Source of the DNA: Cyanidioschyzon merolae
Lineage: Eukaryota
Reading direction: 5' to 3' (one strand)
Assembly: GCA_000091205.1 (NCBI GenBank)
Contig: AP006495.2
DNA: 64,000 bases
Shown: piece after piece, positions 6,075 to 56,321 of the stretch
How the letters are laid out: each line of letters begins with the position of its first letter
Numbering within the stretch: the first letter of the stretch is position 1
Notes under the pieces: generated by a model
Databases searched by the model: none
What the model was told of the DNA's origin: nothing
What the model saw: the letters and a program-made list of their open reading frames with translations, nothing else
Position numbers and translations under genes: made by a program

Positions 6075-9000
6075 CGCTCAGCTTGCCTTGGTGGAGCCCG
6101 GTTCCACTCCAGTCAGTTCGGCAGTGCTGGGCAGGGCTCAAAGCGCGTCTTGTGTTAGTGCTGCACTCGCCTCTGGTGACGCACGTCGCGAATACGTGGG
6201 AGCTACGTTCCCGACACTGCGGCCTGGAAGACCCAGAAATGAACGGATTCGCACGGCTGCGAGACACGATCTCGCTGTCGCCTGTTGTTAGGTTCCGGTT
6301 GGACGCTGAGCAGTGAATACTGGAACACACAGGTGCCAGCACGCCTTTTTTGCTTTCTTTCGTTTTCCTGGTAGGTATTCAACGAAAGGATGCGTCCTGG
6401 AGCATGGAGAAATGTTGTGCACAGACGGAATACTGCCACTGCTGGTATAGGGAACGGCGAGCTTTGTTGTGTGCAAGTCATTCTTTCTGGTGTCAGCAGG
6501 TGGATGAAGCACCCTTCTCGTAGTCTTTACTCGGAACCTTGTGTAACTAGAGAGAAATTCTCAGACTCTATCTACAAGACTGGCTCCTTTTCAAGCCGTT
6601 CCACTCTGTACGCTCTGTGGGATAGACGATCGAAGAATCCAGAGGGCAAGAAGTTTCTCTGCCGTTGCGAGCTGCGGTAATGAATGGACGAGGATAGACA
6701 CAGAAGGAAGCGCTCCGCTATGCGAGGACTTGTTCCGCTAAATACAACACACTCTCGATTTCGTAGTGAAACGCCTACGCTTTGTGCTGGAGCGATAGGT
6801 GTCCGTCTCACTTTATGAGACGTTATAGGGGAAAAATAGCAGACTTCTATAAGAGTACCCTGATAGGGGTAGATGGCTGTTTGTGGGGAACAAACAGGCG
6901 AGCGTAACGGCAACATCAGCCCTGTCGGCAACTCAATGACATGGTCGCCTGCGAACCGCCAAAAGGTCACGATCATTCAGCACCTCATGCTGCGGTGAAG
7001 ACCGTTGCAACCTCTTCCCATATTCTTCTATTCTCTTCTGAGGCAACATCGCATTCCATTCCTCAAAAGCGGTCAAGAAGCATGCAGTTGAGACTGGGGT
7101 TGCGCTGTTTATCGTGCAAGCGCGCGCTCTCTCTGGATGAATCCAGTCGATGGCGTCTCTTCCGTTGTCAATGTCTTTTTGAACGCGCACTTGTCTAGGA
7201 ACGAATCGCCCGCATCCGTGAAGCCGAGGCTCTACGAAAAGTCGCCCTCTACCGTTACCAGCCTTGAACTGCAGCGATTTTTCTCTGCTCGAGCGCAGGT
7301 TGGGGCGGAAATTCGCGCGTCCTTCCGTGGCGTGCTCGCTAAGGAGAAGGTGACGAAGACATCCCCGATAAATCGTAGGTCCCGGAATCGCATACGCACG
7401 ATTCAGTGCCATCGTCTACCCCGTGCGTCTCAGTCCTAGAGCGAAAACGGATATACAGTACAATGACTACACCAACGTCGCCCTGTCAAGTGAAGGAGCA
7501 ACGCGAGGAAACCACCAGACAAGAAATAGGGTGAGCTCCCCGAGGAGAGGGCGAGAAGCGGCAGAAAGGAGCAACTACCGAAGCAGAAGGATCCGTCAGC
7601 AACGGTTTTCAAGGTCTCCCTACGAAAACTTGTTCACGGGGATGAGCTTCCAAAAAGTGGGATGCAGGACGTCATGAACGGTCGCCTAGATTCCCTCGCC
7701 TCGACGCACCTTGGCAGGTAACTTTGCGTAAGATGTTTCAAGTCAGTTTGTCAGCTGTTAACATTGCTCCAGAATTTTCCGACCAAATATTTCTGATGCA
7801 GCATAAATGATACTCGAGACAGACTATGTATTGCGCCCTGAGCGTCGGATCAGAGACTTGTGTGCAAATGCTTCCCAGAATATCTCGACGAGTTGCCGCG
7901 TTACTCCGCGATCAGAGCATCCACAGCGTACGTACCGAAAACTATCAAACCAATCTCCTCGGAAACCGTACACGGGTCCGTGTCGAGCGCTCCATGAGGA
8001 GCACCCTTTGGATATTGTACCTTCACTGTTCTGGTCCAGAAAAGTAGAGCCTGATGAATGTTATGCTTCGTAGGTCGTGAGAGGTACATGACCAGCTCGC
8101 GGCCAGTTTGTAAGAAATGACGCAACGAGATCGACGCTCGCTGCTCATCCTCCCAAGGCCATGGTGTTTTCCTCGATTATGGACCAACAGACATCGCGTC
8201 CAAGTGATATCTGAAACGTGATGCATGCCTTGCTTGCAGTTTACACTTCGAACTCTTCGTGAACAGGGCCGTCCAGCGCAAATCACACTGGCTCCCGGAA
8301 TCTGGTCAAAGTCGCCGCCTAAAGCATCTGTTCGATGTAGTCCCCGTATCGTCAGATCCAGGTTCATGATATGACGATAGGCTGAATGGTTTACTGTTCG
8401 ACGTGGTCCCCCTAGTGAGCTGCGGCTGATCTCTGCGGACAGTAACGAGGCAGTCGAAAATTTTCACGAAAAGCATTCGCGATGCTCGTTCAAGGACTCT
8501 CGTTTACTGGGAGGATACGAAAAGGTTTACCGGTACAGCAGACATCGACGGTTCAGCAGTCTATGCGTACTTCGTGAAACGAGAACCTGGGCGGAGAAAC
8601 GAGACTTCGTCTCTAGCTTTCAAGGTAGAAGAAGGGAAAGACTTGTTAGTGAGCGTGGGTTTCGGGTTGAAGAACATCATAGCCGCCGCTGTCCCTGTAA
8701 CCACAGGGGATATAGCCAAGGACCTCAAAAGGAAAACACAGGCAACTGGTCATCTATTCGGGGGATCGGTATTATCGAGACTCGGGCATGGCAGACGCCA
8801 GGGCCCATCTCGGCGATCTGAGAACTGTATCCAGCAGATGCGAATGTTTTGTACGCTTCATCCAGAGAGCGTACACAGACGCCGAAATAGCTCATGCGGA
8901 CGGTCTTTGGCAAGCGTATATGAGACTGCACTCGGGTAGCTAACGATCTGCGTTCGACGGAGGCAAGAAGCGTGCATTTGCCAATCTGCTGGATGCATTG

Positions 9001-10765
9001 GAAAATTGGAACGAGCGCAAAGTCGTGTCGTTTGCCACTGATGGTAACCTATCCCAGTGGACGTGCTGAGGTGCGCGAATGCTGCACGCCGCTTCCTTCG
9101 ACGAGGGCGTACATGGAATGCAGGCATCGATCCTGCACGAATACCGTCGATTAGGTCAGGTCGAAATGAACGAATCACGAGCATGTGCGCATGCTGAAAC
9201 CAGCAGAGAAGAGGAGCGTGAAACACAGACCAGAGCATGAGATGGTATACGGCACCCAGACGGAACGTAAGATGATGAAGTAATCGAATGGAAGAGGCTT
9301 GCAGTAGTATGATCCCAATGGCTCATATGCCAGCAGGCGCTGTCGGCTTCGACATTTGAACGCCTCGATCAACATCCGGATATGTGTACTGGTTCTGGCC
9401 CGTCCACTGACTCTGTGTCAAATGAAGTGTCGATGTGATACTTTCGTATCCTGAATGGGCATTGTGCTGAAACGCATAAGACGTGCGATGAAATCAAGAC
9501 TAGGAGAGAGGGGCATCGGATTCTCGCCCCAACCAAAGCCGCTGGAATGGTGCAGTTCTGGAATCCAACGAGCCTGAAGCGTCGCATATGTGCACCGGCA
9601 ACTGTTGTCTTCGGTTCTGGTGAACAATAATGGTGTTGGGGTATTTGCTATCATTGAGTACACTGCCGAAATTGGTGTACAATGGTTGCAAACCAAGTTC
9701 ATGAACACTTGTAGATGCGTTTTAGTCGGTTGGCGGGCGTCAAATCATCGAGCTCAAGTCGATTTGCCAGTGACCGGAATAGACCGCGCCCGTACCCCGA
9801 CCCGGTGCAGAGCGTATGAACTTAGGTAGCCGCAACCGCAGCTGCACCTACCCCAGTCGCGGAGCGCTGTCGGAGACGTTTAGAGCACAGACGCTATCAA
9901 GCTTGCAGCCACATTCAGTACAAGAAGCGCGCCGCTTGTCGACACCGGGCCCACGTTCGACTGCGGCATATGCAATACAAGTTGTACTTCACGCTGATCG
10001 CACGCCCAACCGGGGGGAACTGTGGCGCCTCACGACCAGTGACGCACACCAGGATATCGAGAGGTGTACGTGTGTAGCCTCTTCTCTGGTCTATGCGGTA
10101 ACGCGGGACTATATATGGATATTGCGCCAGCGGCTTTGAGTTGCATTGCGGCATGGAATGCAGTGCGCGTTGGTGTCACCCCATGCTCACGGTAAGCCTG
10201 GAGCAGAGAGCACTCGGCTTGTAACCTCTGCAACACGAAACACTGTTTCTTCGATGGTCCTACGCGAATCCGAGCAACGCCCTGGTTCGCTTTCTGAACG
10301 CCAGCTGTGGCTCGCTGTCGCGGTTGTACCGCGGTCGGAGCGTATCCGTTTACGCATGAGCGCATGAGCCTGCGCATGCAGCGTTCTGCTCGGCCAGCAG
10401 TTCCATATGCAATTCCAAAGCGCATCCTTTTTGTATTTGCCGGGCGCATGGCATGCCTTTCGGCCGGTGTGGCACGGACGTGGTGAGCTCCCGGGTAGGA
10501 CGCATCAAACCTGCGAAATGACAACGTATTTGCATCTTTCTATGCAAGCGCACCTCATCCGGCACGACCGCCGCAGCACCTGCCACGGATCATGGCAACT
10601 TGTCCGGTGTACTGCAATCTCTATTCAACTGGCATTCGGCGGCTTCAACGGTAACGCATGTGAAGCATGCCCAACTATCTGCCGCATCACACCTTTGAGG
10701 CAAGACCGTTGTCGCGTTTTATCACCGATACCACGCATGCAAAGCGTATAAGGTCCGGTGTGTGC

Positions 10766-11551
10766 TCAGGAGGCTGGCGCTTCGCCCAGAGTCCCTTTCC
10801 CGTAGCCCCGGACGCGGTTCGTCTTCCGTGTCGAGCCAGGTACGAGCTCAGCGCAGGCTCCCCGATACTCGTAGAACTCCCTCAGAATAACGCAGGCAGA
10901 TTCCGCATCAATTTGTCGTTCGATGCGTCTGCGAGAGCGGATAGCGTTCGCCTCGAGAACGGCTCGCGCCTCTTGTGTGGAGAAGCACTCGTCCCACAAG
11001 TACACAGGGAGCACAGTTGCCTTTGCCAGTTTCTCCGCAAAAACCCTTGTCTCTCGACTCTGATCACTTTCGAGGCCATCACTATGAAGAGGTAGTCCAA
11101 CGACAATCTGATCGACGGCTTCTTGCAGCGCCAGGTCCAGCACGTCTTCAATGAGTCGGTCAGGCACCGTGGATTTCCTACCTTGACCACGATTTCTATT
11201 GCCCTCTATTTTCACCTTATTTTGAGGTCCAGTGGCTACTCGGTGCGCATTCGGTAAACATCCGAGTGGCCGTGGCGCAAAGCCCACCGAAACCGCTACT
11301 CCGACCCGCCGGAAGCCATAGTCGATGCCTAACGAGCGACGGCCTATTTGGGCAATGTTCTCAGCAGAGAGAAGTATGGCCCCTGGAATAAAACAAAAGC
11401 AATAGGACATCCGACGTGGCATAGACTGAAGCATACTGGAGCAGCAGCTGCAGCTGCTCCTGTCCGTGTGAACAAGCACTGCCTGTAAGCGAATCTGGGA
11501 ACACTGCTTAGACCACTTGGGGACGCAAGTTGCGGTACCTGGCCCGGGCAA
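10766..11551 (-). CDS. YqgF/RuvC-like Holliday-junction-resolvase family protein (putative pre-16S rRNA nuclease); bacterial-type with an N-terminal extension
   Basis: 'SLGIDYGFRRVGVAVS' matches the YqgF N-terminal motif. 'IVVGLPLHSDG' and 'REFYEYRG' are typical of YqgF/RNase H-like proteins. About 70 aa precede the domain, which is consistent with a targeting peptide, so the start is uncertain. Confidence 0.6.
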   Translation of the reverse strand: MPGPGTATCVPKWSKQCSQIRLQAVLVHTDRSSCSCCSSMLQSMPRRMSYCFCFIPGAILLSAENIAQIGRRSLGIDYGFRRVGVAVSVGFAPRPLGCLPNAHRVATGPQNKVKIEGNRNRGQGRKSTVPDRLIEDVLDLALQEAVDQIVVGLPLHSDGLESDQSRETRVFAEKLAKATVLPVYLWDECFSTQEARAVLEANAIRSRRRIERQIDAESACVILREFYEYRGACAELVPGSTRKTNRVRGYGKGTLGEAPAS

Positions 11552-11962
11552 GGCACCAGGCGTGCGCGATGTCCCATTTGTTAGTTATATACTATGAAGT
11601 GCAGATATTGAATTGTTATACGTCAATCATACTAAACTATCCATAAAAGACTCGAATTACGAAGCCGGTTGGCTGATCCTCAGTTCGTCGAGAACAGGAC
11701 GTGTGCGTCACGTCCGCAACGACTCTATACAAAACACTGTTAGCTTTGGTTTAGCGGATACGATCTGTTGTCGTCCAGTGATCGGGATGTGGGCAAGTAC
11801 CAGTGTATGACCTATATCCAAGTTCAATGAAAACCGATCGGGTCCAATTATCGATTTCGGGCGTGCAGCCGAAAGTTTTGGACTCTTCCCACGATCATCA
11901 ACACTACCATTTGTACGCTTTCTCGGCAGAAGATTCCGTTTTCTGTCGCTTTTGTTCGGATT

Positions 11963-12620
11963 TTAAGGTACTGGTCTCTGTCTTCTCTCCAGCTCCCTTG
12001 GCTGTAGTCGAAGGATGTTGATTGCAGCGTCAAGATCCCTAGGTCGCAGCATTCTGCAGCTGTCGAAGAAATCCATAGACAGACGGTCGGCGCGATCGAC
12101 GCTTCGCTGCACTTTTTTCATCTTCTTTGTACGTCCCTGAGGGGTGCATCCACCGCAGCCGTGACAATTGACCATCGCCAGGTGTTTCCATAAGCCTACG
12201 AAACCGAACGCGCTGGGCGCTGCCCTGTGTCGCGTCGAGATTTGCTTCATCGCTCCATCCACGCCCTTGGCGGATCCGGAAGGCTCGCCTCAATATCCTC
12301 CTTTGCTTCCGCTTCCGATGCCGTAACCTTAAACCACGGGCTTTATCTGGGCGATCCCTCGGAGAAGAAGCCGTGCTCGGCGCATGCAAGCGAGCGCTAT
12401 CCCACTCGGTGGTGACTCCATGGCGCGCAACGCCATCCATGATGGAATGAGCATCTGCAGGAAAATCCAGGCTGGAAAAGCCGCCGACAAGTCTCAGGTC
12501 GCCTACACTCCTTTGCGGCAAACCGGTGACGGTCGCTCCGCTGAAAGCGAGCCGGCGTGATGCCTGAGGCCCCAGCCGCCTCCCTGCAGAAGCAGACGAT
12601 ACACGAGCCTCTGGAAGCAT
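11963..12620 (-). pseudogene. Decayed TnpB/Fanzor-like (OMEGA RuvC nuclease) gene relic: the C-terminal zinc finger and RuvC-III motif are intact, the upstream part is frameshifted
   Basis: ORF 11963..12262 encodes '...NCHGCGGCT...DSCRM...RPRDLDAAINIL', a CxxC zinc finger followed by the (D/H)RDxNAAxNI RuvC-III signature of TnpB/Cas12. A possible RuvC-I-like 'SVGDLRLVGG' lies about 155 aa upstream in another frame (ORF 12039..12620). There is no continuous ORF. Confidence 0.4.
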
Positions 12621-14052
12621 ACCCCGTGTGCGGGATCATGCTGATGTCCATGCGGATTCGTCGATGGCCCGAAAGCGAGGAGGAATTGTGTTTCGGGCAG
12701 AATCGTTTATTTGACGTCAGCTGCTCAGTGGATATGCGGGATGAGCTCGCGATCCATTCGTCAAGAGACGACGTGGCGTTATTGGCTCGTAAATCCGGAC
12801 GCGCCCACGAGTTTGCTTGCAACTGGATGATCGAAGCATCGGAGCGCGCTCCATTGGAGGAAAACGAGGGGATTGGAGGCTTCTCCACATGCACTGATGA
12901 ATTAGCATCGGTTACGCTACGAGCCGTTGTTCGAGGCCGTCGCGAATGCTCTCCGTTCCGCAAGCGTAGCGAATTCTCGCGGCAAAGCGTCGCCCGAGCT
13001 ACCCCCAGACATACAACTGAGCACCCGAAAAGGACGGATGAAATCAAAAGTGCACATTGCTGCACTTCGAATCTCGATGCTGGCATCTAAAAATCGCTCC
13101 GAAAAATCGAAAAGCAGGAATAGAGCAGGTACTGAAACGTTGCATTTTCATCTGGTACTCGTGCAGTCGATACACACGCGATATTCACGATGCGCTCCAC
13201 GCCAGGATTCGACGCCACATCAGCGAGCGCGTCTTCGGCTTGTGGAACACGCACACAATGAACATTCAACGAAGGTCTCGTCCACGGTTTCCGACACCAG
13301 TCGCGCATTCCAATGAAATCTGCCCCGACTCGTCGACCTCAGTCCAGAGCCGGACCGCTGCATCCGGTGCAAAACCAAATGCCCGCAATAGGCTCGCTGC
13401 CCCCGCAGCGTCACGACACCAGACGACTCTCGCTCAAGCAACACGCTCCTGAGGCACGGGTCGTCCACTTTTCCACAGAAAACGTGAGCAGGCACCTGCG
13501 TGATCGCCAGCGTTCGCGCATCCGCAGAAATCCACCTGAATCCATCGATCACCTACTGAACGAAAGTATCGTAGCGCTTCTCTTCAAGTTCAACATGATC
13601 CTACGACGCCTGCAAAGCCAAACTGCTTATCCCGACACGCACCAGCAATCGAGCTGCAGAGGCACCCCATGAGACGCCCCAGGTCTTGATCGTGGCAGGC
13701 TACACCAAAACCTTGCGCCTGCATCGAGGTGTGTTTCTGTACTGCGTCGCGCCGTCGCTGCGTCGCCAACGGTCGACGCCGCCGGCGATGCTGCCGCTGC
13801 TGCGCCTGCGGCTGCTGATAAAGCTACTACTGCTTACCATCTCTTTCTGTTGTTGCTCGTGCCAAGCATACTACTTCGGGTGTGTCGTCAACGACAACGG
13901 CTGCATTCTAGGCCAGTTTCGAGTTTCCGAGCGTCAGGTTCCGTATAGCGCTTGGATTCTGCCTCGGCGTCGACGCGGGGCGTTGCCGCGAATCTCTCCC
14001 CAACGCGGCGTCAGTGCTTCCAGGCGGGTGTGCAGACGAACAGTGCGAAATC

Positions 14053-15828
14053 ATGTGCGGTATTTTCGCTATTATCGGGAATACGACGCGTTCGGAACAG
14101 GAGCTTGCTCAATTGACCTGCAAATGTACTGAGAAACTCCGACACCGAGGTCCCGACGAGTTCACCACAGAGGTCTACGGTGGCGGTTGGGCTGCCTTTG
14201 GCTTTGCGCGGCTGGCCATAAACGATCCAGCGCACGGACACCAACCGATGCGCAATGACCTCTCCACAGTTTTTGCGATAACAAATGGTGAAATCTACAA
14301 TCACGAAGAAATTCGACGTGACGCTTTGGGAAACCGCCCACTACACTCACACTCTGACTGTGAAGTCATTATCCCGCTGTACGAGAAGTTGCTGGGGGAG
14401 AACGCCGAACAAGCGACCTCGCGAACTGGTCCGGCGCTGGTTGAGCGGCTCTTGCTTCCTGCCAAGACCCTCTATGATATGCTTCGTGGCGTCTTCGCCA
14501 GTGTCTTGGTGGACCTCGAACGTGGCGTTTACGTTGCGGCACGCGACCCGGTTGGGGTTCGCGGAATGTTCGTAGGCGCCTCTGCAGATGGCGCGGTATG
14601 GATTGCCTCCGAGGCAAAGGCTCTCGTTGAGCACTGCGATCGTGTGGAAGCATTCAAGCCGGGAACGCTGATTGTTGGCGTTCGAGGTCAGGAGCGTGCC
14701 ACCGCTTTCACGTTTGAGCCGTGGTATGTGCCGCGCTTCCTCGCGGATGACTCGTGGACGCCAACTGCGCCAGCGAATCTGCAGCTACTCCATGATGCTT
14801 TTGTGGTGGCTGTTCGACGTCGCTTAATGGCGGACGTTCCTGTTGGGGTCTTCATCAGCGGCGGCCTGGATTCGAGTCTCGTTGCTGCGGTTGCGAAGCG
14901 CTATTTGGCTCCGGACTATGTTTTCCACTCTTTTGCATGCGGTCTGGCGGGCTCACCTGATTTGGCGGCTGCTCGCCGGGTTGCAGAGTTCTTGAAGACA
15001 GAGCACCATGAGCTCATCTTCACGGTGGAAGAGGGAATCGCCGCTCTGGATCGGGTCATATATCACTTGGAAACGTACGATGTGACGACAGTGCGAGCAT
15101 CAACGCCGATGTACCTGCTCTCCAAGCTCGTCAAGCAGTACGTGAAAGTGATTCTGAGTGGTGAGGGTGCCGATGAAGTGCTCGGTGGATACCTGTACTT
15201 CCATAACGCGCCCTCTGCGGCCGAATTCCAACGCGAGACTGTGCGCAGACTGCGTCTGCTTTACACCGCCGACGTACTTCGAGGCGACCGCAGTACAGCG
15301 GCGCATTGTCTAGAGCTTCGAGTTCCATTCCTGGATCGCGATTATCTCGATGTGGCAATGACAATCGATCCGCAAGAGAAAATGTGCGTTCCAGGAAAGA
15401 GAATGGAAAAATGGATCATGAGAGCCGCCTTCGATGAACATCTTGGTCCGGCACGAACGCGCTACCTTCCGGACGATATTCTTTGGCGACAGAAGGAGCA
15501 ATTCAGTGATGGTGTCGGTTACAATTGGATAGACGGCCTTAAGGCGTTCTGCGAGAGCCACGTTTCCGATGACGAGCTCCACAATGCAGCAGCGCGCTTC
15601 ACATACGATCCACCGACAACAAAAGAAGCGTACTACTATCGAATGATTTTCGAGAAACATTACGGTTCGTATCCATCAGCGCAAAGCCTGCGCTCATGCG
15701 TCCACAAATGGATTCCGCTTTGGTCGGAATCGACGGATCCAAGCGGCCGTGCTCAACGAGTACATCTCGCGAACGCTCGCCAGGAAAACCACTTGAAAGC
15801 GCCACAGAAACAGGAGCGAGCGAACTGA
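14053..15828 (+). CDS. ASN: Asparagine synthetase (glutamine-hydrolysing)
   Basis: The N-terminal 'MCGIFAI' carries the catalytic Cys2 of class II glutamine amidotransferases. 'SGGLDSS' is the PP-loop ATP pyrophosphatase motif, and the C-terminal region matches AsnB. The start was moved to the ATG at 14053 so that Cys follows Met directly. Confidence 0.9.
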   Translation: MCGIFAIIGNTTRSEQELAQLTCKCTEKLRHRGPDEFTTEVYGGGWAAFGFARLAINDPAHGHQPMRNDLSTVFAITNGEIYNHEEIRRDALGNRPLHSHSDCEVIIPLYEKLLGENAEQATSRTGPALVERLLLPAKTLYDMLRGVFASVLVDLERGVYVAARDPVGVRGMFVGASADGAVWIASEAKALVEHCDRVEAFKPGTLIVGVRGQERATAFTFEPWYVPRFLADDSWTPTAPANLQLLHDAFVVAVRRRLMADVPVGVFISGGLDSSLVAAVAKRYLAPDYVFHSFACGLAGSPDLAAARRVAEFLKTEHHELIFTVEEGIAALDRVIYHLETYDVTTVRASTPMYLLSKLVKQYVKVILSGEGADEVLGGYLYFHNAPSAAEFQRETVRRLRLLYTADVLRGDRSTAAHCLELRVPFLDRDYLDVAMTIDPQEKMCVPGKRMEKWIMRAAFDEHLGPARTRYLPDDILWRQKEQFSDGVGYNWIDGLKAFCESHVSDDELHNAAARFTYDPPTTKEAYYYRMIFEKHYGSYPSAQSLRSCVHKWIPLWSESTDPSGRAQRVHLANARQENHLKAPQKQERAN

Positions 15829-17088: not shown

Positions 17089-18625
17089 AGCGGTCCGCGT
17101 AGACACTGCTCTAAAGCGACCTCGACTATGGCAACAGCAGTACCGTCCAGCGGAAACGTGTCGATGTCTACACCCGAGTACCGATAGCCCGACGGAAAAG
17201 CACACCAGGTGTCGCTGTCGCTGCATGGTAGCGTTCGGAGAGGCGACGCGTAGGCGCGCTTCCCGCTCGCCGCAGCGTCCGATGCATCGACAATGCGTCG
17301 AGGCATACCTGATCCGTTTCAACGATTACGTACTGTAGCATCATCAACTGGGACGTTGCTTGATGTTTTCTGACATTCCGTCCACGTTTGTGGTCGTGCA
17401 TGTCATGGTGCGGGTGCTAAGGTCACGAATTGACTCCCTCGAATAGAGATCGCGTAATCTTTTGGAGTATGGAAGGCGAGGTGTGGCGACGCTGCGGACG
17501 CGAAATCCTGATTCTCTTTATCATTGTTATCATCTAGAGAGGCTCTCGGTGCGTCCAGAAATCCCTAGTGAGATCGATGGATCTCGTATCGTATGATTCG
17601 ATGGTGACACCTCGACAGGATCCTGAGTCGTTTCACAAGACTTGCCCGAAAAGGTTATCGGCGCGTCCGAAAAATGCCCATCAGACTGAGCTTGTACGAG
17701 CCAGTCAAGTGCCGAGCAAACAGAAACGAACCGGCAGCCAGCGACTCGATACCAATTTCGTTCCAGCTTCACGGTGAACATTGAACGGGGGCAAACGTCT
17801 CCGTATTTTCGAACGTTGATCCGCATGATGGAAGGTCGCACGACCCGGACGTGTCCGGCGCGCTCGTGCCTCACGCCTCCCTCAGTTACCGGGTGATGTG
17901 GCGACACCTGAGCGACTCATCTGCAACGATGTTTTTGTTTTTAGATGAGAAAGCGGTAGGCTGCATGCTAGGCGTTGCCCTGGTTGCAGTACGCTCCTAG
18001 CAGATCGCTTCGCGCTACCGCAAGCAGTGCGTCTCTCTCCGCAGCTTGCTGGCTCCCAGTATCATAAAGAGTCCCGATTCCGTATTGAATAAAAGACACT
18101 TCGAGCCAACGTCTTCTCAGTCGTATGCCAATCCCGTTCTATGCTCGTGCTGCACCCGCACCAGCTGTACAGGGTTTATTCAGGGGACAGCAAGGCAGGT
18201 ACTCGCTGCGCGATAGAACGCACGAAACGACCAGTACAACCTATATCACATATAGGTTATGGAACTTGAGCGTATGGCACAGCATGATGGACAATTCCAT
18301 GAACCCTACTATCCATTCCGTGTCTGGGTTCCGTGGTCAATGGAAACATTTCGTCAAACAAGAAAATCAGACTGATATCTCGTACAATGAAGTACCTCAG
18401 TGGCGCGCGCTGCTTCGTTTCAGACTTGGCAGGCAGGTTCTGCACACGGACGCTCATTGGCTCGATTTCGCGCCCACTGCGGACAGAAAGACTGGTGTGG
18501 ACCTTGCGGAGCGTGGAGGCGTCTTCCGGTCAACTGTCGTCTCTTGGTTGGTCTCTGTGAGCCGCTGTGCACTTAGGAGGCTCTGGTCCGACGCAACAAT
18601 CTTCAAGGGTAAAGGCCAACTACGG

Positions 18626-19459: not shown

Positions 19460-21993
19460 CGGCACTCGATAACGACACCTGCGGCAAATGCACCCGAGAC
19501 CTCTAGCATGCGCCTGGGAGGCGTATTTGGCCACTTGTTTCGTAGAAGATGGAGACTGAAAATCTAATTGGAGATTCATCGAACAGGGATGGAAGCAAGT
19601 GTAGGCGTTTCGAGGACGCTAGCCTGTTGCGCACATCGATAGCGGTGGCACGAATGAGCGCTGCTCGGAAAGATGCTGCACGAGGCCTGCGTACTCCATG
19701 AGAATATGCATGTAGTAGTTTACATCGGAACCGTTTGGTTTGCTCCATGCCAGAGCTGCTTCTTGAAACAAACTGCATAGTCTAAGGCATGTATAACCGC
19801 TCCAAATGAAACTAGTGCATGATGTCTGGTATGCAAACGCCATTTTCTGCACATCTAACGGAAGCAACGGTGGAGGAATTGTTGGCAAGTTTCGCGCCTG
19901 TGAAGCTAAGCACGACGTGGCGGTCGGATACCTGTGAAAGTTGCGGGTTGCGCATCGTGACAATCGGCAATGCCAGCCGTTTCTACGGGCCAGTCGCATG
20001 TTCTCACTGGCTTCAGCGCTGCTGCAGTCAATGGGCGAACACGAGTCGACGACAACCATATCTGAGCAACGTGGACGCCGCCGCACAAGCTGAGTGCCAT
20101 GTCTTCTCGATTCTGGGCTCAACGGAGCGAACACGTTCCGCGACCATTACGTAAATGAATACCGACGTACAGACGCCTCCTGGCCTGTTTTGACCGGCTG
20201 ACTGCTATCGGTTTCAGTTTATACAGGCACACTTCGAGTCGGAGAGGCAACGCCGCAAAGTCGGCTTGCGTCAGCTCCGCGAGTTCCGTCTTCAGCACCA
20301 CATATCGTCTGCTATAGATGGCGGCGTTAAAGTCTCGGTTCACGAACTCCGTGCGTCAATTGTCGCTAGTTGAACTCACCAATGAAAGGATTCCTCGAAT
20401 TTGTGCCTCCTGTGCAACTACAGTTTCGTCGCGGTCCCGTAGGGCAAACGCTTTTTCTGGCCTGCCTCCCCTCGTCTTCTTCGTCACTCGCTCTTCATCG
20501 CTCCATGATTGGCGAAAAGGATATGTTTTTGATTTTTCTCCGGCAGCCGGCGGCACCGGCCCTCGAGGATCCCCGGATTCCGTGTCCATACCTTTTCCTT
20601 GGATTTTTTAAAATTGAAAATGAACGCACTTGTTTATGCCGTTAGTTAAGAACCCCCCAGCGTGGACAAGAACTTGCAGATGAAAGCGGTCATGTGCCCC
20701 GGTGTATCATCGTGTGCCGAACGCTTCAGCGATTCGCCCAGAGCAGTGATCATTCGTTTCAGGATAGAAAGCGCTCGTTCCATGGTGATGAATCCTGATG
20801 GCTATGGAGATACGATAAAAAGATCTATCCCGATAGGATCCGCAAAAGCTCGAATGCAAGGGGAATGGTGAAATACCGCGTTATCCAGTAGAGGGACGTC
20901 GCCAAGCGTCATGGAAAAGTCTTCAATGATTCGGCAGAGTGGTTGGTACTGTTGAATGAACCTCATGTAGGTGCAAAACTGAGGCCCCCAAATCAATCCA
21001 CTCCATCTAGAACAGATGATCTAGTCGTCCTCTTCGAGTTTGATCGTACATGCAACGGGCGCCCTGCACCGAGAATATCCACATACGCTCGGACCGTATC
21101 ATCCGAAGCACGTCTCATCGACTGAAAAAACAAACCAAAGTCCTTGTGCTTCGTGTTGATCGCTGAGTCCCAGGAACGCTGTCGTTCCGATTTCCGTGGA
21201 AGATGGCGTGCGCGAACTAGAACTTTAGCGACTGTATCGCAGCGGCTTCAGGATTCCACGAAAAAGCTGTTGAGAAACAGAGACGCCCATGCAGACTACC
21301 ATCTTCACCTTTGCCTCCCGTACAGTGTGATCAACGGGTCATTTTCTACCATTGAACGCAAACTGTCATTGAGAATACCGTGTTTTTGGTACAAAGCGCG
21401 CATACTTGTCTCTTTTAGGGCTCCTCAACCATTAGAGAACTCTGATATGACTGACATGCAAGAGGAATGCGGTCCTCCTTGCACCGTTCAGTAAAGAATT
21501 GATCCCACAGGCAATTCCTCTACGATCTATAAAATACATTGCATCGTGATCTCGATCTCATGCTTTATAATGCGAAAAAGCAATCGATTCCACGCTGCGG
21601 GAGTGGAACGGAATTGAGTTGAACGACTGCAATACATGCCATGCGATGTAAACCTGAAAGAGAAAACATCGCCTGTCTATGGTATATATAGAAGAACACA
21701 TATCCCAAGATATTTACAGGGAGCATGAAGCTTGGCAAGTCAAACACGAGCGCGCAGTCGCTACAGGCAGAGCGGACACGCGCACACATGCACCCGTCCG
21801 CCAGACGTGAGCTGTAGTTGCCGTCCCAGACGCTCTCTGGCCGCCTCTTACACGCACCTACAGTCTTGTTCGCTGCAAGGGAACTAGACGCGCTGCCAGC
21901 ACTACCGTAGAAGGCAGGATTCACCACCGCTTCACTTGGATGATGCGACGAAACGTCTCCACCGCGCGCCGTCACGCTTACGCAAGCTCCTGC

Positions 21994-22278: not shown

Positions 22279-25200
22279 CTGGCCCAGTGCTTTCCCTTCT
22301 GGTCAGTACGAGTCGTTTTTCGAACGGGACGCAGCACAGTACTGCACAACGCCAAGCATGCCACGCGTGTCGATTCGCTTCGGTGCGCGCACCATCGCAC
22401 ACGCAGCTGTCGCCGGAGCTGTCCGTCGCGTGGCGCGCTACAATGAGCGCAGTGTGGCGGTAACGACTGCGTCGCAGGGAGCACCCTCCTCAAGGGGCCA
22501 CGGCACTGCTGCGTTCGCTGACTCTGCCCATGATTGCCAGCGGGATGACTCGTTTCGGGGTCAGCAGAGGCTGCAGGTATCCGGAGTTGACTGGTGGTCG
22601 CTTTTCTGGTCTTTGGGGAGCGATTGCGTATCCCGAGGGGATTTTGTTTGGAGATGTCGATCTGACGTTGGAAAAAGTAAAGTTTTCATTTTAGACTCGG
22701 TATCACGACTATCACTGGACTAATGAAGCGCCATTTGGAAGAAAAGCATCATCTTGGGAATCGTACGACGTGATAGCGGCTCCTGGGCGCGTTGCGATGT
22801 GTTTTCTGGTCACTGGTGGCGCTGGCGCTTTCGATTCGTTTTGGGAAGGTTTTCTGAAACTGGACAAAAAGGACAGAATACTTGCTAGAACGAATACGTG
22901 TCTACGCGCGACTGGAAGACTGATCCGGAGCTTTTCGAACCTTGTTGTGTCTACACGGGTGCACGAGTCGCTTTCCTGGTTGCCGGCAATATTTCGTACC
23001 CAGGTCAGTCTGGGTCGATCCACCAGCGATGCACTTGTGCGATTGCGAGCGCTGTTGCCGGCGATAGGGGATCCGACTCGCGGCACAGGGCGCTCGGTCG
23101 GATATCCTAGATTCCTGAAAAAAAATCGTCAAAGTAAGAAAGGATGCATCCGGCAGGCGTTGCGCGCCACGTGGCATACATGCGGATCGACGAGTTCCGG
23201 ATACTACACGAGACGTACAGCGCCAAGTACGGCGTTCTGAATGGCAAACACGACATCGGGCAGGTGTAGTGATGGTGATCCTGTTGTGGTTGTTGTTGTC
23301 GGCGAAAATGGAGGTGTTACGAATGGTACATGTAATGATAGCGGAACCCTGAAACCGTTACCAGCGGGGTAGCGTCCTTTGCGTCTCGCGGGCCGATAAC
23401 GACATCGAGCTGGTGTGGTGCTGATGATTGCCCATGTTGGTGATGATGTTCATCATGGTTAGGCCCGTAAGCTTCTACCAGCGGTTGGACGTCGTGTGTA
23501 ATTGTCACAGGCAGCGTTCACCATTCCTTGTGGAAAGCGAGCAAGCTCTTTTTAGACTCACCGACGCTGTACCAGGATACGAAACAGCGTGCGGTGCAGG
23601 TGCAGCATAAATCGCGGAAGACGCATCCCGCACGTGACTGGACGCATGCGTGACGGCGGCTGAAAAGGTACAGGAGCTCGGGTTGGAGGAACGCCTCCCT
23701 CGCACACTCATAGAACATCGTGCAACTGGCCGTGTTCATTATAAGAATTGCGTGCACTGCAGTGCAAATGCGAGCGACGTTGTTTGCAGTGTCAAGTGCA
23801 GATGCCGACGCTGCCGTCTTTTAGGGCACAAGCTCGATGAGTCGTACGAGGTGTCAGGAGCTGTGCCATTACTGCCTTCAACAAGGTTGACCCTGGGATG
23901 CGCCCAATTGGAGGACGCTGCTGTCGACCTGGATTCCACACGCGTGTCGGAAGAGAATGGAACGCGTGCACTTTGCTCATTCAGATGTAGCAACCAGAAT
24001 CTGGCTGGCGTCCGACCGTCATCGAAACCAGCCATCATGCGTCCTTCCCGCAGCTTCTTCTTTTTCCTTTCGTTGATCACCGGCATTAAATATACCGGTC
24101 ACGCTTGTCCTTCCATCACCGCTGTCGACAGTTTACGAATTTGATAGCAACATCAAAGTTCTGGTTTAGCCGCTTACGGCTGTTTTCTATGCGTTTGATC
24201 GGCAGGCGGCACTCGCAATCGACACTTCGCATGCCAGTGTCATCTGCTTTGCACAAGGCCAAGGAATACCCTTTTTTAGCCGAGACACTTGTTTGTGACC
24301 AGATGTTACCACGTATCCACCAGATTCCTCCTATGAGATCAGAACCGTGGATTCATGGCCGGCTGCATGCCCTGGACGGGTGCAGAGGACTCCCCTCGAT
24401 GACCTTTTCTGTCCCCACATTCATCGCCATACCCGAAGATCACCGGCTCCTTCAGAGCGGTGCCCTCGACGAGTATTCTGTCTGCTGCGTACGCAAGCGT
24501 ATGCGGTTCCTTTCGACAGAGGGTCTGTGGAACGCGATCTTTTGCATGATGAAGCAGGTACCAGGAGCGGAATCGAGGCTGGATGACAAGTCGAGAAATT
24601 TTGGATCCGTCAACGCTCGCTTCGGGCACAACGGTGAAGCGCGCCTCACCAGAAAATTGATCCCTGCAATGGCTCGAGTCCGAGTCTGGGACCTGTTTCT
24701 GTGAAAGCAGAAGAGACGGTAGCCTATGCGAGCATATCCTGAGAGTGCTCGCTCACTGCCGCTGTTGAACGTCGGATCTTCGATTCTCACAGAGAAAGGA
24801 TTATTTGACTTGCGAAAGGATTCTGTTGTATGAGATGGAGCGTGCAGTGAACTTTGGACATGAGCCTGTGATCAAGTGATCAAGGAACGACGTCGTTTTA
24901 TTGTCCTCGTTCATCCAATCCTGCGAATGGCTGCGCGTGTACGAGTTGCCTCGAAACAACAGTATCGAAAACACAAAGCGTGTGTGATTTGTGCACGCCA
25001 CACGTTGGAAAAACCGCTTGGGGCTCTGACGTTTCAGTAAGATCATGATATCGTTTATTTTCCAAACCCTGATTCCAATGCCGTAACGCATTCCAGATGC
25101 AACGCGTCGTAGAAACCACCCAGAAAAGGCAAGCGAACACCATAAACGACGTGTGAATCCGTACACCCATTTGCTGCACTAGGAATACCGAAGCTGTTCG

Positions 25201-25747
25201 TCTACAACGAGTTCGAGGAAAATTCGAAAAACGCGAACAGAGCGAGGAGTCTAGTGTTGTGTTTTATCTGTCAGGCGTAGAGCATTAGTGTCTCCAGCGA
25301 GCCGCAGCGATCCAGAGCGCAGACTAGGCTATAGCGGGTCGCCTCAAAGGTTTTTGATGACAACGAGGACAATGCTTTGTGTGCCCGAGCGCCCAACATG
25401 ACTCGCCATTCCGAACCGGGATCCCATTCTACCCCAGCCAAAAACATCGTGTCGTCGGGCGCGGTCCCGTAGTGTCGCATTGGCGAGAGCGGGTGACTCG
25501 ACTTACGAGTCCGCCAGTTTGCCATTGTGCAGCAAGTGCATACTGAGGTTCAGCGACGCAACTTTTCCGGTGACGCTTGCCTCCACTGATGTCATTGCCG
25601 CAGTGACCGCTGCCTTCAGGGTTCTCGACGCAGTCGCGATGTCGACGGTCCGCTGTGCACCCAGTGCACCCTGACTCTCACCGTCCTGTCTGCGAGTTCG
25701 GGCTCCAATACCCATCGACGGGTTTGTAGCAGCAGCAGCAGCATAGG

Positions 25748-34833: not shown

Positions 34834-35755
34834 CGTTTGGAGTGTTCGAACAAAACTGCGGATCCTGCACAAGCCGGAACGCTGGCTAGTATGTTGCGTG
34901 AACGCCGCGAGAGAGATGGACGGTATCCGTGCGCTTTGGACCATACGCATGGACATGGGTCAGACTGCTTCGCCCGAGGAACCTTGAAACCGATGAGGCC
35001 TGACCAGCTGCGCATTTCAGCAGCAACTCGGCGAGTCTGTCGAGACACAACAGAGACCAGGTTCGGAGACCGCTTTCGATCTTGAATGGATCATCGTCTT
35101 GGCGATACGCTTTCCACCCAGATGGCGTTGACCAAAGCACTGATAAACCTTTGTCTTTCGAGAGCGAATCACGCGGAACTTTGTTCCTTCATAATATCCC
35201 CCGAATGAGCAAACGTGAATAGGCTTGCAGAGGCTGAGGAGCACTCGTTCATGCACAACATGGATCCGTCAACTGATAGACCGATCTGATCCTTTTGAGG
35301 AAAAACATGTTCAGCGCATGGAAGATATCCGGCGAACGTTTACGGCGGCTATTGCCTGCTTCTATATGATGGTAAGCAGTCAATAGCCGTGAATATATTC
35401 TTCTGACAATCATATGTTTTGTATTGTCTTCTTCATACTACACTGGGCATTGAAACTCACGCCGTGCTTTCCCCGGGCGCTGCTGGAGAGCACTTTCGGA
35501 ATCATGAAGCCGGCTTCGGCCAGCGCACCAGTCTGGGACATAGTGGATGAAGTGGCTTGCTCAGAAACACTCCGTCGTCGTCCTCCATTGCTGGTCACAG
35601 ACGTCGCCAATGAGGAGCAGGTTCTGCAGCGCCGAAACAACGCCCAAAGCGCCGCTCTATTCTAAACACCTCTGCCCTGAGCGAGGCGACAATTGCTTTC
35701 CATAGATGCGAATTATAGATAGAAGTACCGAGTAACGGAATGTTCTTATCCATCG

Positions 35756-36504
35756 AATAGCCAGGAAAAACTGTACATGGTGAATTGGTGTGGTGCTCGG
35801 GTCTTGCAGTATTGCTGAACCGTTCTGTATCAGCGTGTGAGCAGAGGCGGGAATCCGATTCTCCCTCTTGAACAGTGATGTTTCTCCATTGCATATAGAT
35901 TCCGTTTCCAGCACCAGGGCCTCACTGGGTGCCAGAGGATTCCCTCAGAACTTCGCTCGACACCAAGCCGGTGGACGCGATGGCAACAAGCGCCCGTCCC
36001 GGATGTTCAGCGAGGCGATCATTCGTAGGTGCAGAGTGTCCTTGAGCGCATTCTTGCCGGGGGAATCATGCTACAGCATGCCTCCGATCTTCGATAGCTC
36101 CGCAATCTGAAATTTGATCAGCTTGCTGTTCGCCATCTCGTGAATCTGGCTCTGTCTCATGCTCTTCTTCTGTATTCGTTTCACTGTGCACCGGTACTGG
36201 CGATGCACGTACATCGTCCTGAACGCATCTATGGGAATCGTGCAGCATCGATTCGTGCACTTGCTTGGTGCTGTCGCTGAGGGCACAGGATTAGACTCTT
36301 GGGGTGGTACACAGCCCCCGTAGACATAGGCTACCACAACGCGACGAGAGTAATCGGTCATTTCCTTGCTGGGAGCCCCCAGAGGGCTTTGGTGAATGCA
36401 CGCATCTTGCCTCTGTAGAACCGGAGCCCGTCGGGGGCGTCAGTGCAGTCGCATGTGCTGCTCATACAGGTCCTTCGCATGAGCCATGTGGACGCCTTCG
36501 TACT
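35756..36504. repeat. Dispersed repeat, copy A (about 749 bp); direct repeat of 50031..50779 at roughly 98.5% identity
   Basis: Aligning the two copies base by base starts at 'aatagccaggaaaaactgtacatggtgaatt' and ends at 'gccatgtggacgccttcgtact'. There are about 11 mismatches. The flanking sequences are unrelated and I see no target-site duplication. Confidence 0.9.
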
Positions 36505-38309
36505 TTCTCTACGTGAAGCATACAAAGCTCCTGCCTCTGATCGAGACGGTGCTCAGAGGGCCATGATGGATCCTGGCACCCCCATTCGTGTCCTTGACAT
36601 GTCCCGTTGCCTGCATTATGCTCGACTGCCGATAATAAGGAGCTCTGAAAAAGTTGAGCAGCTTCATCTACTTTTCGTTCAGGTCCTCGGCTGCGTTCTC
36701 TTGATCTAGAGCCCAGTGACCTCCATGATATTCTTAAACATGGGATGCACGCACAGAAGAAAGGTTTTCTCTTTTTCTTTTCTGAACGCTTGAAACGGAG
36801 TCCCGTTGCCTGACGAAGGCCTGGATTCTACCACGTGCATATAGACTACAACGCCGTTGATCTCTCTCGTGTTCAGGAAGATTTTCCGTTCCATCCCGTT
36901 GAGCGAGCAACCCTGAATGAGCTCTGCCAATGCCGCATGCAAACTTGTCTGAATCTTTCATTTTTGCTCGCATAGACCAGCTCTCTCGTCGCCTTGTCCT
37001 TTACATGGCCGGATTGTATGCATCTGGTGACCAGATCCTCTATTTGTTTGTTTTCCTTGGAACCCAGGCACTTTGGGAGAACAGTGGTTATGAATCTGAC
37101 CTCATCTATGAGTGGATCTACTCATCCTCGAGCACCTTTTTGTCTACACCAACGCGAGCACGCCCGCAGACCGAGACGCACCTTTCCGCCTCCTGGACTG
37201 CGCGAGCTGACGGGCATCAGAGCAGCTCAGGCTTCGTGAATGCCGAACAGGATTCGTCGAAGACCGGTGTCGCGGACTCGAACAACTCTTCTATTGATCC
37301 GGGGATGTTAGAATGGCGTTCCACATCAGAGGAAGCGATGTCCTCTTGATTGAACCAAGGGGAGCGTGCTTGCACGAACTGCAGCTCAATTAGAATCTAA
37401 GCTGTGTACTCTTTGATCGCTTTTGAGCGGTCGAAAGTAACGTTGTGTTAGAGCAGGGCAGAGCGATATAGAGAGGCATAGGTATGAAACGTGCTCTGAG
37501 AAAGGATGAGGTATGGATCGGTTCCATCCGATTGGCGATTTGTAGGCGATACACGACTGCATTGTCGCTGGGGCTGAAGCTGTCGTCATGCTCGCTTGTC
37601 GCTTCTTAACGATAAGCGGGTTTTCCTTCCCGGAGTACCCAGGTACAGGTCTAGCATTCCTCTCGCGAAAGAAGTCTCATCGCGTGAGAGGAGCATTCGT
37701 CGCTCCTGTAATACGCATTGATGATCCAATACGAAATTGATCACGTGCTGCGCAGGGCACGACAAACTCCCACAGAAGCGCACTTTCATCTCCGTCCATC
37801 TGTTCGTCTTCATCACCAGTCGAATCAAATGTGCGGAAAACTTCACATACCATGGCTTCTCTAATTGTATTGCTTAGAGAATGTATGGAATACAATGGGT
37901 TGACGAGTAGACATTCGCGCGGATAGATTTCATCAATTTCTGTTTCGGGTGCATAACGTTCAGACCGAGGACTACGACAAATGCGGTTCATCCACTTGCT
38001 AACCGTCAACTAACTGACTTGTGCAAAGTAGGCCTATTTTTCCGGCTAGCAATGACAGCACAAGTCTTTCGATGACCTTGCCCCAATGCATCGTATGCAT
38101 TTCTTGTGCTGACTACCTCTGAGAAAACCGAACAGAAACAAAAACGGTGTGCTGTTGCAGGTATCCCTGAATGCACTGCGCTGTGGCTCAGGAGAGGCGG
38201 CGCATGAACGCCAACGCGTAGCAGCGATACGATCCCTTCGAAACCGGAGAGCGTCAAAACGCTTTCGTACTCATTTTTTTCGAGGCACTCTCGTCGGCTT
38301 TCTCCCAGC

Positions 38310-49734: not shown

Positions 49735-50030
49735 GAAGTGTAGCTCGCGATGTCGCGATGCCGCCCTGCCGAAGCGTTCGGAAGGCGGCGGGATCGCTGT
49801 GCTCGCGCATCTGCAGCCATTGGTGCAACGCGTACGCCGCGATGCACGCGCCAGGTACAGGTGTGCGCTGGCGATCGGCGCGCATCCGCTGGCGTGATCA
49901 GATTCGTCTCGAGGCTGATCGCCGCGCTGTGCCGCATCGCCGCTGGGGTATGTTGTGAAGCGCGCGCGCTCTGTACCCCGCTTATGAATGCGCGATCATA
50001 TCGCATGCTGGATCATCTTTCTTGTCGACC

Positions 50031-50779
50031 AATAGCCAGGAAAAACTGTACATGGTGAATTGATGTGGTGCTCGGGTCTTGCAGTATTGCTGAACCGTTC
50101 TGTATCAGCGAGTGAGCAGAGGCGGGAATCCGATTCTCCCTCTTGAACAGTGATGTTTCTCCATTGCATATAGGTTCCGTTTCCAGCACCAGGGCCTCAC
50201 TGGGTGCCAGAGGATTCCCTCAGAACTTCGCTCGACACCAAGCCGGTGGACGCGATGGCAACAAGCGTCCGTCCCGGATGTTCAGCGAGGCGATCATTCG
50301 TAGGTGCAGAGTGTCCTTGCGCGCATTCTTGCCGGGGGAATCATGCTACAGCATGCCTCCGATCTTCGATAGCTCCGCAATCTGAAATTTGATCAGCTTG
50401 CTGTTCGCCATCTCGTGAATCTGGCTCTGTCTCATGCTCTTCTTCTGTATTCGTTTCACTGTGCACCGGTCCTGGCGATGCACGTACATCGTCCTGAACG
50501 CATCTATGGGAATCGTGCAGCATCGATTCCTGCACTTGCTTGGTGCTGTCGCTGAGGGCACAGGATTAGACTCTTGGGGTGGTACACAGCCGCCGTAGAC
50601 ATAGGCTACCACAACGCGACGAGAGTAATCGGTCATTTCCTTGCTGGGAGCCCCCAGAGGGCTTTGGTGAAAGCACGCATCTTGCCTCTGTAGAACCGGA
50701 GCCCGTCAGGGGCGTCAGTGCAGTCGCATGTGCTGCTCATACAGGTCCTTCGCATGAGCCATGTGGACGCCTTCGTACT
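50031..50779. repeat. Dispersed repeat, copy B (direct repeat of 35756..36504)
   Basis: See copy A. The offset is 14275 bp. This copy lies in the 5' flank of the peroxidase gene. Confidence 0.9.
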
Positions 50780-56090: not shown

Positions 56091-56321
56091 AACAGCGTCT
56101 TTCGGCTGCCGATTATTTGATCCGCGCCTCTGTTCCTGCCTGGTGCAAGCAGGTCGACGTAACCGACTGGATGCACAGATGCGGAACCCAGCGAGCGACG
56201 CGGGTGTCTTGCAGCGCCCGGCCGTTGCTCAGACAAGATGATCGGCAGCGGGGCGTACTCGAGCGCCAGTGTACAGCTATTGCAAGCGCAGGTTCTGCGG
56301 GAAAGTATGGGTCATGGCGGG

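Follow-up and report, generated by a model that had tools for sequence, protein, structure and literature searches.

The 64,000-nucleotide stretch of contig AP006495.2 analysed here (the window) comes from the genome of Cyanidioschyzon merolae 10D, a red alga. Its minus-strand segment 11815-13163, lying in unannotated DNA between the genes BAM81003 and BAM81004, is very probably a dead copy of an internally deleted, non-autonomous Tc1/mariner-IS630 transposon that once carried a Fanzor1 gene. The homology between copies, the termini, the domain content, the deletion junction and the neutral decay are all shown by the analysis. The locus is a genomic fossil, not a working RNA-guided system. A preliminary description of the window had seen in it a second TnpB/Fanzor-like relic, with a transposon end or omegaRNA scaffold to be expected beside it. 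That tempting reading is corrected below: the element has TA-flanked terminal inverted repeats (TIRs) of the Tc1/mariner kind, not the organisation of IS200/605-type elements, and the locus is better read as a mariner deletion derivative with a former Fanzor1 passenger than as TnpB with an omegaRNA.

A resident repeat family

The features to which the preliminary description drew attention, namely a zinc finger, an RDLDAAIN motif occurring twice, a VGDLRL motif upstream and an AT-rich island, are all present in the sequence. An open reading frame (ORF) of 99 amino acids (11963-12262, minus strand) contains ...VNCHGCGG...RPRDLDAAINILRL, with RPRDLDAAINIL likewise downstream of VNCHGCGG, and the segment from CHGCGG to RDLDAAINIL occupies 12011-12190 (-). 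The back-translated RDLDAAIN pattern matches the window exactly twice, at 12017-12040 (-) and 57212-57235 (-), with 0 matches expected from shuffled sequences (n = 100); this variant of the RuvC-III motif is common to the 12-kb and 57-kb loci, as had been noticed. SVGDLRLVGG is found at 12477-12512 (-), in another frame, about 155 codons upstream.

Alignment of the two loci at the nucleotide and protein levels revealed homology extending far beyond the short motif. They are colinear over approximately 1,390 columns with 57% identity, scoring 205 bits vs at most 27 bits in 20 shuffles. The matches fall in all three reading frames, which indicates homology at the level of DNA and not conserved coding. 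With either locus as a query, two further copies were detected in the window, and a family profile run over it yielded four copies in all, each of full length and on the minus strand, with no fragments besides. Copy A (11815-13163) is a complete but decayed element of about 1.38 kb including the flanking dinucleotides; it corresponds to positions 2-1380 of the nhmmer family model, its ends having been placed by alignments of 8 and of 16 copies. The 57-kb relic, copy B, is located at 57010-58365, copy C at 43098-44478 and copy D at 23939-25279. Pairwise identity among the four is 56-61%, in a star-like pattern. The supposition that the two relics represent one resident element family is thus borne out by four copies in the window.

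Twelve additional copies were collected from metagenome contigs of Cyanidioschyzon-type genomes by protein-database profile searches and a metagenome scan, giving 16 independent copies in total, every one full length and with the same ends. A homologue search with the 148-amino-acid ORF of copy B returned its own orthologue only. Judging by their sequences, copies A-D are dead members of a repeat family of about 1.38 kb in C. merolae 10D, which is apparently undescribed in the literature searched, Repbase lying outside that search.

Consensus sequence and termini

The consensus of the 16 copies is 1,376 bp long and possesses 25-bp TIRs flanked by TA. Its 5' end, TA followed by CACCCGTGTCAGATGAAAATGGAAC, agrees in 24 of 27 positions with the reverse-complemented 3' end, TA followed by CACCCATGTCAGAATAAAATGGAAC. 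In the 8-copy consensus the TIR score was 20, vs 10 ± 1.6 with a maximum of 16 in 500 shuffles. The shared termini sought for the two relics were accordingly found, and they are common to all copies. In copy A, the 5' TIR with its flanking dinucleotide (CA instead of the consensus TA) is located at 13138-13163 (-), and the 3' TIR with the flanking TA at 11815-11840 (-), the repeat itself occupying 11840-11817 and the TA 11816-11815. Nine of the 16 copies have TA as the dinucleotide flanking the 3' end, and the other seven differ from TA there by a single change.

The consensus also proved useful beyond the termini. Although the relics are only about 57% identical to one another, it recovers domain calls that single copies miss.

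The transposase-derived part

Read in one frame, the 5' part of the consensus encodes an IS630/Tc1-mariner transposase with a helix-turn-helix (HTH) region and the first and second catalytic aspartates (D1 and D2). The consensus peptide matched Pfam DDE_3 (E = 1.7e-10, 41.3 bits, gathering cutoff 28.6) and three HTH families with E-values from 4.6e-4 to 0.01, including HTH_33 (E = 4.6e-4) and HTH_Tnp_Tc3_2 (E = 1.2e-3). Over profile positions 20-238 of 299 it also matched the NCBIfam model of IS630 transposases (E = 1.4e-18), and in a BLASTP comparison it matched the mariner transposase of the element PUl-1 (E = 1e-5). A sequence search of the PDB with the transposase profile gave no meaningful match.

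In copy A the corresponding region (12420-13086, minus strand) is frameshifted; it spans two HTH motifs and that portion of the DDE domain which ends with the second catalytic aspartate. The D1 motif, AIDESA (consensus IDETAF), is located at 12649-12668 (-), opposite ALDEAAF of the PUl-1 transposase; the D2 motif, IMDGVARH (consensus IMDNIAFH), is located at 12420-12443 (-). The third catalytic residue is absent from the consensus because of the internal deletion described below.

The VGDLRL segment had been proposed as a possible RuvC-I motif. At 12477-12512 (-), the segment RSVGDLRLVGGF corresponds to GSVDGSKFLDLF in the consensus and stands opposite GSVDSLRFHAFL of the PUl-1 transposase. 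It lies within the DDE_3 match, between the D1 and D2 motifs, at the place of the GSVDxxxFxxFL motif of IS630/mariner transposases. Given this position opposite the PUl-1 segment between D1 and D2, it is not RuvC-I; homology to Fanzor begins only downstream of it.

The Fanzor1-derived part

The 3' part of the consensus, in a different frame, reads YRMEQRAL...PVIVGYGTGRGNGGGHRGEPSAPVKGMYRAMK...WEHLTTVKCHRCE...CMKC...NRDLDAAINILRLL and represents the C-terminal third of a Fanzor1 protein, with the glycine strand, the alternative glutamate, the C4 zinc finger and RuvC-III. It matched PF07282 with E = 2.4e-6 and 28.0 bits (cutoff 26.3); an intact relative scored merely 24.4 bits with the same family. 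A custom hidden Markov model (HMM) of Fanzor1, built from 12 published Fanzor1 proteins and covering 275 positions from RuvC-I to the C-terminus, matched the consensus with E = 2.4e-16, and only HMM positions 128-268 were aligned. When 1,639 six-frame pieces of the window were searched with a shorter Fanzor1 C-terminal HMM, the copy B ORF (57068-57601) ranked first (E = 2.7e-7) and the copy A ORF fourth (E = 7e-4). The attribution of the zinc finger and RDLDAAIN to a Fanzor/TnpB-derived protein is upheld by these ranks and by the PF07282 score of the consensus. The TnpB-family HMM match on which the preliminary description had made its proposal depend thus exists, to PF07282 with the consensus and to the Fanzor1 HMM with both loci. 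A PDB sequence search with the Fanzor part of the consensus found no meaningful match, and the single ORFs of copies A and B matched nothing in NCBIfam.

Fanzor proteins have a rearranged catalytic site: Gly or Pro stands at the canonical RuvC-II glutamate, the alternative Glu lying some 45 residues downstream (PMC10530073). The consensus shows this arrangement as PVIVGYGTG ... WEHLTTVKC. Copy B retains the glutamate in REHLASVKC; in copy A the segment reads WKHLAMVNC, Glu being replaced with Lys. A [TS][TS]-x-x-C4 zinc finger followed by RD constitutes the Fanzor1 motif of Bao & Jurka (PMC3627910), and the consensus has it as TTVKCHRCE...CMKC...NRDLDAAINIL, with RD within 5-50 residues of the finger. 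Of this region, copy A retains no more than the first CxxC and the RD motif; its Fanzor1-derived part (11870-12411, minus strand) corresponds to the C-terminal ~180 codons alone, the equivalent of the stop codon being at 11870. The position of the alternative RuvC-II Glu and the first CxxC are contained in WKHLAMVNCHGCGG (12149-12190, minus strand), and the RuvC-III motif PRDLDAAINIL is found at 12011-12043 (-), opposite NRDLDAAINIL of the 16-copy consensus and NRDFNAAINIL of the intact Fanzor1 protein P0116.

The RuvC-I aspartate (GxDPG) is not present in the family, the region upstream being transposase. RuvC-I had been described as frameshifted; it is deleted, as the Fanzor1 HMM alignment, confined to positions 128-268, also shows. 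The possession of the C-terminus only of Fanzor, together with a partial transposase, indicates that the family is an internally deleted, non-autonomous mariner element with a Fanzor1 gene.

The internal deletion and intact relatives

With the stitched consensus as a query, the proteins P0116 (551 amino acids) and P0118 (712 amino acids) were retrieved from JGI metagenome contigs. Both are, on sequence grounds, bona fide Fanzor1 proteins that possess RuvC-I; P0116 has the RuvC-I motif GLDPGR and matches the Fanzor1 HMM with E = 1e-28. Their C-termini share 45-55% amino-acid identity with the family consensus, and the DNA is 64-65% identical over 260 nt. Homology to these intact genes, in both DNA and protein, starts at nucleotide 828 of the consensus, 9 nt past the D2 motif (nucleotides 796-819), and in copy A the junction falls directly after the D2 motif, at about 12411-12420 (-). 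The transposase and Fanzor remnants lie in different frames of the consensus.

In several contigs, such a Fanzor1 gene is preceded on the same strand by a gene for a transposase that shares 39-42% identity with the consensus (E from 1e-48 to 1e-53). Two of these contigs, L026 and L027, contain complete elements of 3.6 kb with differing flanks and TIRs of the form TA followed by CAACCGTGAAAATTAAAATGGAACAC. TA is found at both ends of these elements, and a target site duplication is indistinguishable from a TA inside the TIR. The family has no equivalent of approximately positions 790-2955 of L026 (about 2.2 kb), that is, of the transposase C-terminus, the spacer and the N-terminal two-thirds of Fanzor. 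Two further contigs, L020 (which encodes P0118) and L021, carry Fanzor-only elements, and in L021 the 3' TIR found after the Fanzor stop codon is the same as that of the family.

These comparisons lead to the following course of events. The parent was very probably an element of about 3.6 kb consisting of a TIR, a mariner-type transposase, a Fanzor1 gene and a second TIR. An internal deletion took away the final third of the transposase, with its third catalytic residue, as well as the first two-thirds of Fanzor1 (WED/REC and RuvC-I), and joined both remnants out of frame. The 1.38-kb derivative would have kept both 25-bp TIRs and, as we infer, would have been amplified by cut-and-paste into TA sites, the transposase being supplied in trans by full-length elements. 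Internal deletions of this kind are the textbook way in which non-autonomous DNA transposons arise.

The Fanzor-only copies of L020 (6001-8139) and L021 (5002-7285) are 84.5% identical over 2.1 kb and have a GC content of 55%; their gene contexts differ and include Peptidase_S74, ATG8, UvrD helicase and RNA ligase genes. Directly upstream of the P0118 gene, at 5524-5958 of L020, there is a truncated Fanzor1 gene of a second lineage (VNRDFNAAKNI), 35% identical to the protein CMe-1. It is possible that the host of these two contigs is a large or giant virus. Cyanidiales are not known to possess ATG genes, and the presence of ATG8 would argue against a Cyanidiales host. A scan of IMG/VR with P0116 found no relative. 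The origin of the parent would seem to have lain outside the alga. We can only tentatively regard the family as what is left of a mariner element with Fanzor1 that once invaded the Cyanidioschyzon lineage; the existence of intact relatives elsewhere that share the TIRs, in hosts that are possibly viral, points to horizontal transfer, a scenario that we consider conceivable and somewhat doubtful.

The AT-rich island and the 3' end of the element

The preliminary description located an AT-rich island at 11585-11960 and expected a transposon end or an omegaRNA scaffold there. The island itself is real: its GC content is 0.444 vs a window mean of 0.547 (sd 0.036, 376-nt windows), which places it in the lowest 0.26% of such intervals and makes it one of the three spots of lowest GC in the window. 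Homology within the family ends at the 3' TIR. The part at 11815-11960 is the 3' end of the element, with a Lys/Arg-rich tail, an untranslated region of about 25 nt and the A/T-rich TIR. The rest of the island, 11585-11814 (GC 0.435), consists of unique spacer sequence upstream of BAM81003. The island is thus made up of the A/T-rich 3' end of the element and the upstream spacer of the neighbouring gene, and the expectation of a transposon end stands as far as the 3' TIR is concerned, most of the island being outside the element. A palindrome with a 7-bp stem (GGACGTG-TGCGT-CACGTCC) is located in this spacer at 11698-11716, between copy A and the RuvX-like gene. About 500 bp past the 3' end of copy B, there is a tandem duplication at 56320-56516 with a period of about 99 bp and 78% identity.

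Nothing in the relic speaks for an omegaRNA. The z-scores of RNA folding were 0.01 for the 3' region of copy A, 0.57 for the flank 11585-11814, 1.45 for the 3' region of copy B and -0.87 for the 3' end of the consensus, none of them significant, so that neither the island nor the 3' region of the 57-kb relic folds better than shuffled sequence; an Rfam search over the whole window gave no match. It is quite improbable, therefore, that the locus is a frameshifted relic of a whole TnpB/Fanzor gene, from RuvC-I to RuvC-III, with an omegaRNA or a transposon end filling 11585-11960. The C-terminal Fanzor motifs invoked by this explanation are genuine, Fanzor guide RNAs do come from the 3' noncoding region (PMC10530073), and the 3' TIR is indeed found at 11815-11840. 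However, the RuvC-I proposed is inside the DDE_3/IS630 match, the Fanzor HMM aligns over 128-268 only, and family homology stops at 11815, leaving 11585-11814 as unrelated flank with no fold or Rfam signal.

In Fanzor systems the right TIR is overlapped by the guide RNA, which has its source in the 3' noncoding region (PMC10530073), so the expectation of an omegaRNA is reasonable for the ancestor of the deletion derivative, although it finds no support in the relic. The 3' ends of nine relatives (L021 7222-7290, L026 3530-3633 and seven other loci; 40-88% identical) have an invariant TACGCC after the Fanzor stop codon and always the terminal GGTGTA. These hexamers, between which the 3' TIR is enclosed, are complementary to each other. 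RNAalifold applied to the nine 3' ends predicted only one invariant stem of 6-7 bp with no covariation, a result uninformative on structure as both hexamers are invariant. To judge by its conservation, the TACGCC...GGTGTA pair may belong to a guide RNA or serve transposase binding in the living lineage.

Decay and present state

Each copy is about 75% identical to the consensus, taken as the ancestor (copy A about 75%), and each contains frameshifts and stop codons in every frame. Mismatches among the copies are spread evenly over the three codon phases with no bias. This pattern fits neutral decay from a single burst. Over 20.6 kb the window shares 99.26% identity with the sequence of a related strain (L022); between the strains, copy A diverges by 1.41%, the flanking coding sequences by 0.24-0.75% and the spacers by 0.85-2.47%. 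The ORFs of copy A are not found in the NCBI proteome of strain 10D. Copy A now encodes nothing functional and is inert, unconstrained intergenic DNA.

The opposite assumption, that the copies function as a domesticated chimeric HTH-DDE/Fanzor protein or as a family of noncoding RNA genes of constant length, is highly improbable. It could draw on the full length of all 16 copies with few large indels, on the single strand shared by the four copies of the window, on the long open frames in the consensus and on the transcription reported for other C. merolae repeats (Nozaki et al. 2007). However, the copies show no codon periodicity and have stops in all frames, the two halves are out of frame even in the consensus, the divergence between strains is at the level of spacers, and no signal of structure was detected.

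Some observations also sit uneasily with a dead deletion derivative of a mariner element carrying Fanzor1. DDE_3 was undetected in any single copy or metagenome ORF, its cutoff being passed only by the reconstructed consensus, and the single ORFs of copies A and B scored below threshold with PF07282 (E = 0.15 and 0.0085), where again only the consensus passed. The 5' TA is poorly kept, being TA in only three of the 16 copies. The location of all four window copies on one strand and the full length of all 16 are slightly unusual for old relics of DNA transposons. No full-length parent was found in Cyanidioschyzon-type contigs, and the parents come from other environmental contigs. Finally, copy A has a near-identical partial twin in a related strain and is consequently not wholly ancient.

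This twin, a fifth copy (A') found in the related strain to the left of window position 1 (window-equivalent -1091 to -2420; L001 3019-4339 = L014 13226-14546), lies upstream of an ADI/DDAH-like gene. A' and A are 98.8% identical from the 5' TIR to window position ~11969, with 15 mismatches over 1,210 bp and no gaps. Their last ~160 nt differ by a 19-nt indel and share only about 55-65% identity. Since either tail has some 70% identity to the consensus, A and A' are evidently two old copies homogenised in part. A second case of patchy near-identity concerns an old CMe-1-like repeat described in the next section: 35743-36504 and 50019-50779 are 98.2% identical over 762 bp from near the end of the element, the adjoining parts being 61% identical; 37105-38179 and 51513-52587 belong to the same comparison. 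The members of this pair are separated by an offset of 14,276 bp in direct orientation, and the A'-A offset is 14,257 bp. The flanks share no similarity, which rules out a segmental duplication as the source of these near-identical tracts. Patchy conversion may still be exchanging sequence among these 'dead' copies, or the similar offsets may be coincidental. Several metagenome contigs break at the mariner+Fanzor repeat.

CMe-1A, other transposon relics and neighbouring genes

The only Fanzor1 family described in C. merolae is CMe-1A, which is 3,169 bp long, has about 150 copies about 80% identical to their own consensus and has no TIRs (Bao & Jurka 2013, PMC3627910). CMe-1A, or TE-N2_CMe, is equivalent to the 3.2-kb repeat of which Nozaki et al. 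(2007) reported 253 copies. Comparison with the CMe-1A consensus and the CMe-1 protein, both taken from the supplement of Bao & Jurka (PMC3627910), makes it scarcely credible that copies A-D are members of this known family. They share with it the genome, a considerable age and a Fanzor1-type C-terminus (RDFNAAINI in CMe-1, RDLDAAINI here). However, CMe-1A matched seven other sites in the window and none at A-D even at tblastn E <= 10, it is 3.2 kb long and without TIRs, and the family is closer to P0116/P0118 (45-50% amino-acid identity). The best BLASTP match to CMe-1 covers 33 residues only (E = 5e-4). Since neither the CMe-1A consensus nor the CMe-1 protein matches at A-D, these copies belong to a different family.

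An old CMe-1-like repeat is present in the window in three copies of 2.4-3.3 kb at 6308-9654 (+), 35743-38179 (-) and 49995-52589 (-), which share 58-61% identity. It contains a Fanzor1 pseudogene (tblastn to CMe-1 E = 1e-29, 31% identity), was missed by the CMe-1A DNA consensus and is probably an older relative of CMe-1A. Fragments of CMe-1A/TE-N2_CMe, 70-89% identical to the published consensus, are located at 17719-18356 (-), 20161-20631 (-), 45885-46075 and 52956-53197; the copy at 20.2-20.6 kb is internally deleted.

Old transposon relics occupy about 24% of the 64-kb window, with the mariner+Fanzor family contributing about 5.4 kb, the CMe-1-like repeat about 8.4 kb and CMe-1A fragments about 1.5 kb. 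For the C. merolae genome as a whole, 0.7% transposons, 5% repeat and eight class II elements with a 'bacterial-like transposase' were reported (Nozaki et al. 2007). These eight elements may be the best-preserved copies of the mariner+Fanzor family, and this transposon-poor genome may be substantially built of unrecognised ancient transposons. Eight housekeeping ORFs of the window are exact matches to strain 10D proteins (BAM81001-BAM81017), encoded on a chromosome of 866,983 bp. The genes adjoining copy A are BAM81003, which encodes a YqgF/RuvX-like protein (coding sequence 10769-11434, minus strand), and BAM81004, which encodes an asparagine synthase (14053-15825, plus strand).

Comparison with known systems

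Tc1/mariner elements carrying Fanzor1 are known as PUl-1, PUl-4 and PGv-1 (Bao & Jurka 2013, PMC3627910). Like them, the C. merolae family is organised as a TA-flanked TIR element with a mariner/IS630-type transposase upstream of Fanzor1 on the same strand, and its Fanzor part has the YGxW/G strand, PxPVKG, the E-x-x-T-S-x-x-C4 zinc finger and RD-x-N/D-AA-x-N. It differs from them in its deleted state and its length of 1.38 kb, having neither the transposase C-terminus nor the Fanzor RuvC-I, in its red algal host, in its decay of about 25% and in D for N in RuvC-III (RDLDAAIN). The PUl-1 transposase shares only about 22% amino-acid identity with that of the family.

The transposase part fits the model of bacterial IS630 and DDE_3, and insertion at TA, apparent for the family, is common to both; unlike bacterial IS630, the family has a eukaryotic host and a Fanzor passenger, and it scores 67 bits vs an equivalog cutoff of 100. 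With the TnpB elements of IS200/IS605-IS607 it shares the homology to the TnpB zinc ribbon and RuvC-III (PF07282), and it is distinguished from them by TIR/TA termini, the absence of TnpA and subterminal hairpins, a rearranged RuvC-II and the lack of an omegaRNA signal. CMe-1A resides in the same genome, is of similar age and belongs to the same protein superfamily, but it has no DNA homology to the family, represents a different Fanzor1 lineage and contains neither TIRs nor a transposase part. A second Fanzor1 lineage and a class II family with TIRs and TA are thereby added to a genome reported to contain one Fanzor family and eight class II elements.

A close resemblance is seen to the elements of L026 and L027 and to P0116/P0118. 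The TIRs characteristic of Tc1/mariner-IS630 transposons are possessed by the C. merolae family and recur in L026 and L027; the repeat is nearly the same (inner AAAATGGAAC, outer GGTGTA), and TACGCC invariably follows the stop codon. Unlike the family, these relatives are intact or nearly so and have RuvC-I. The algal fossils are in this way tied to intact 3.6-kb elements, whose compact Fanzor1 genes, together with the 3' motif, can be tested as RNA-guided nucleases.

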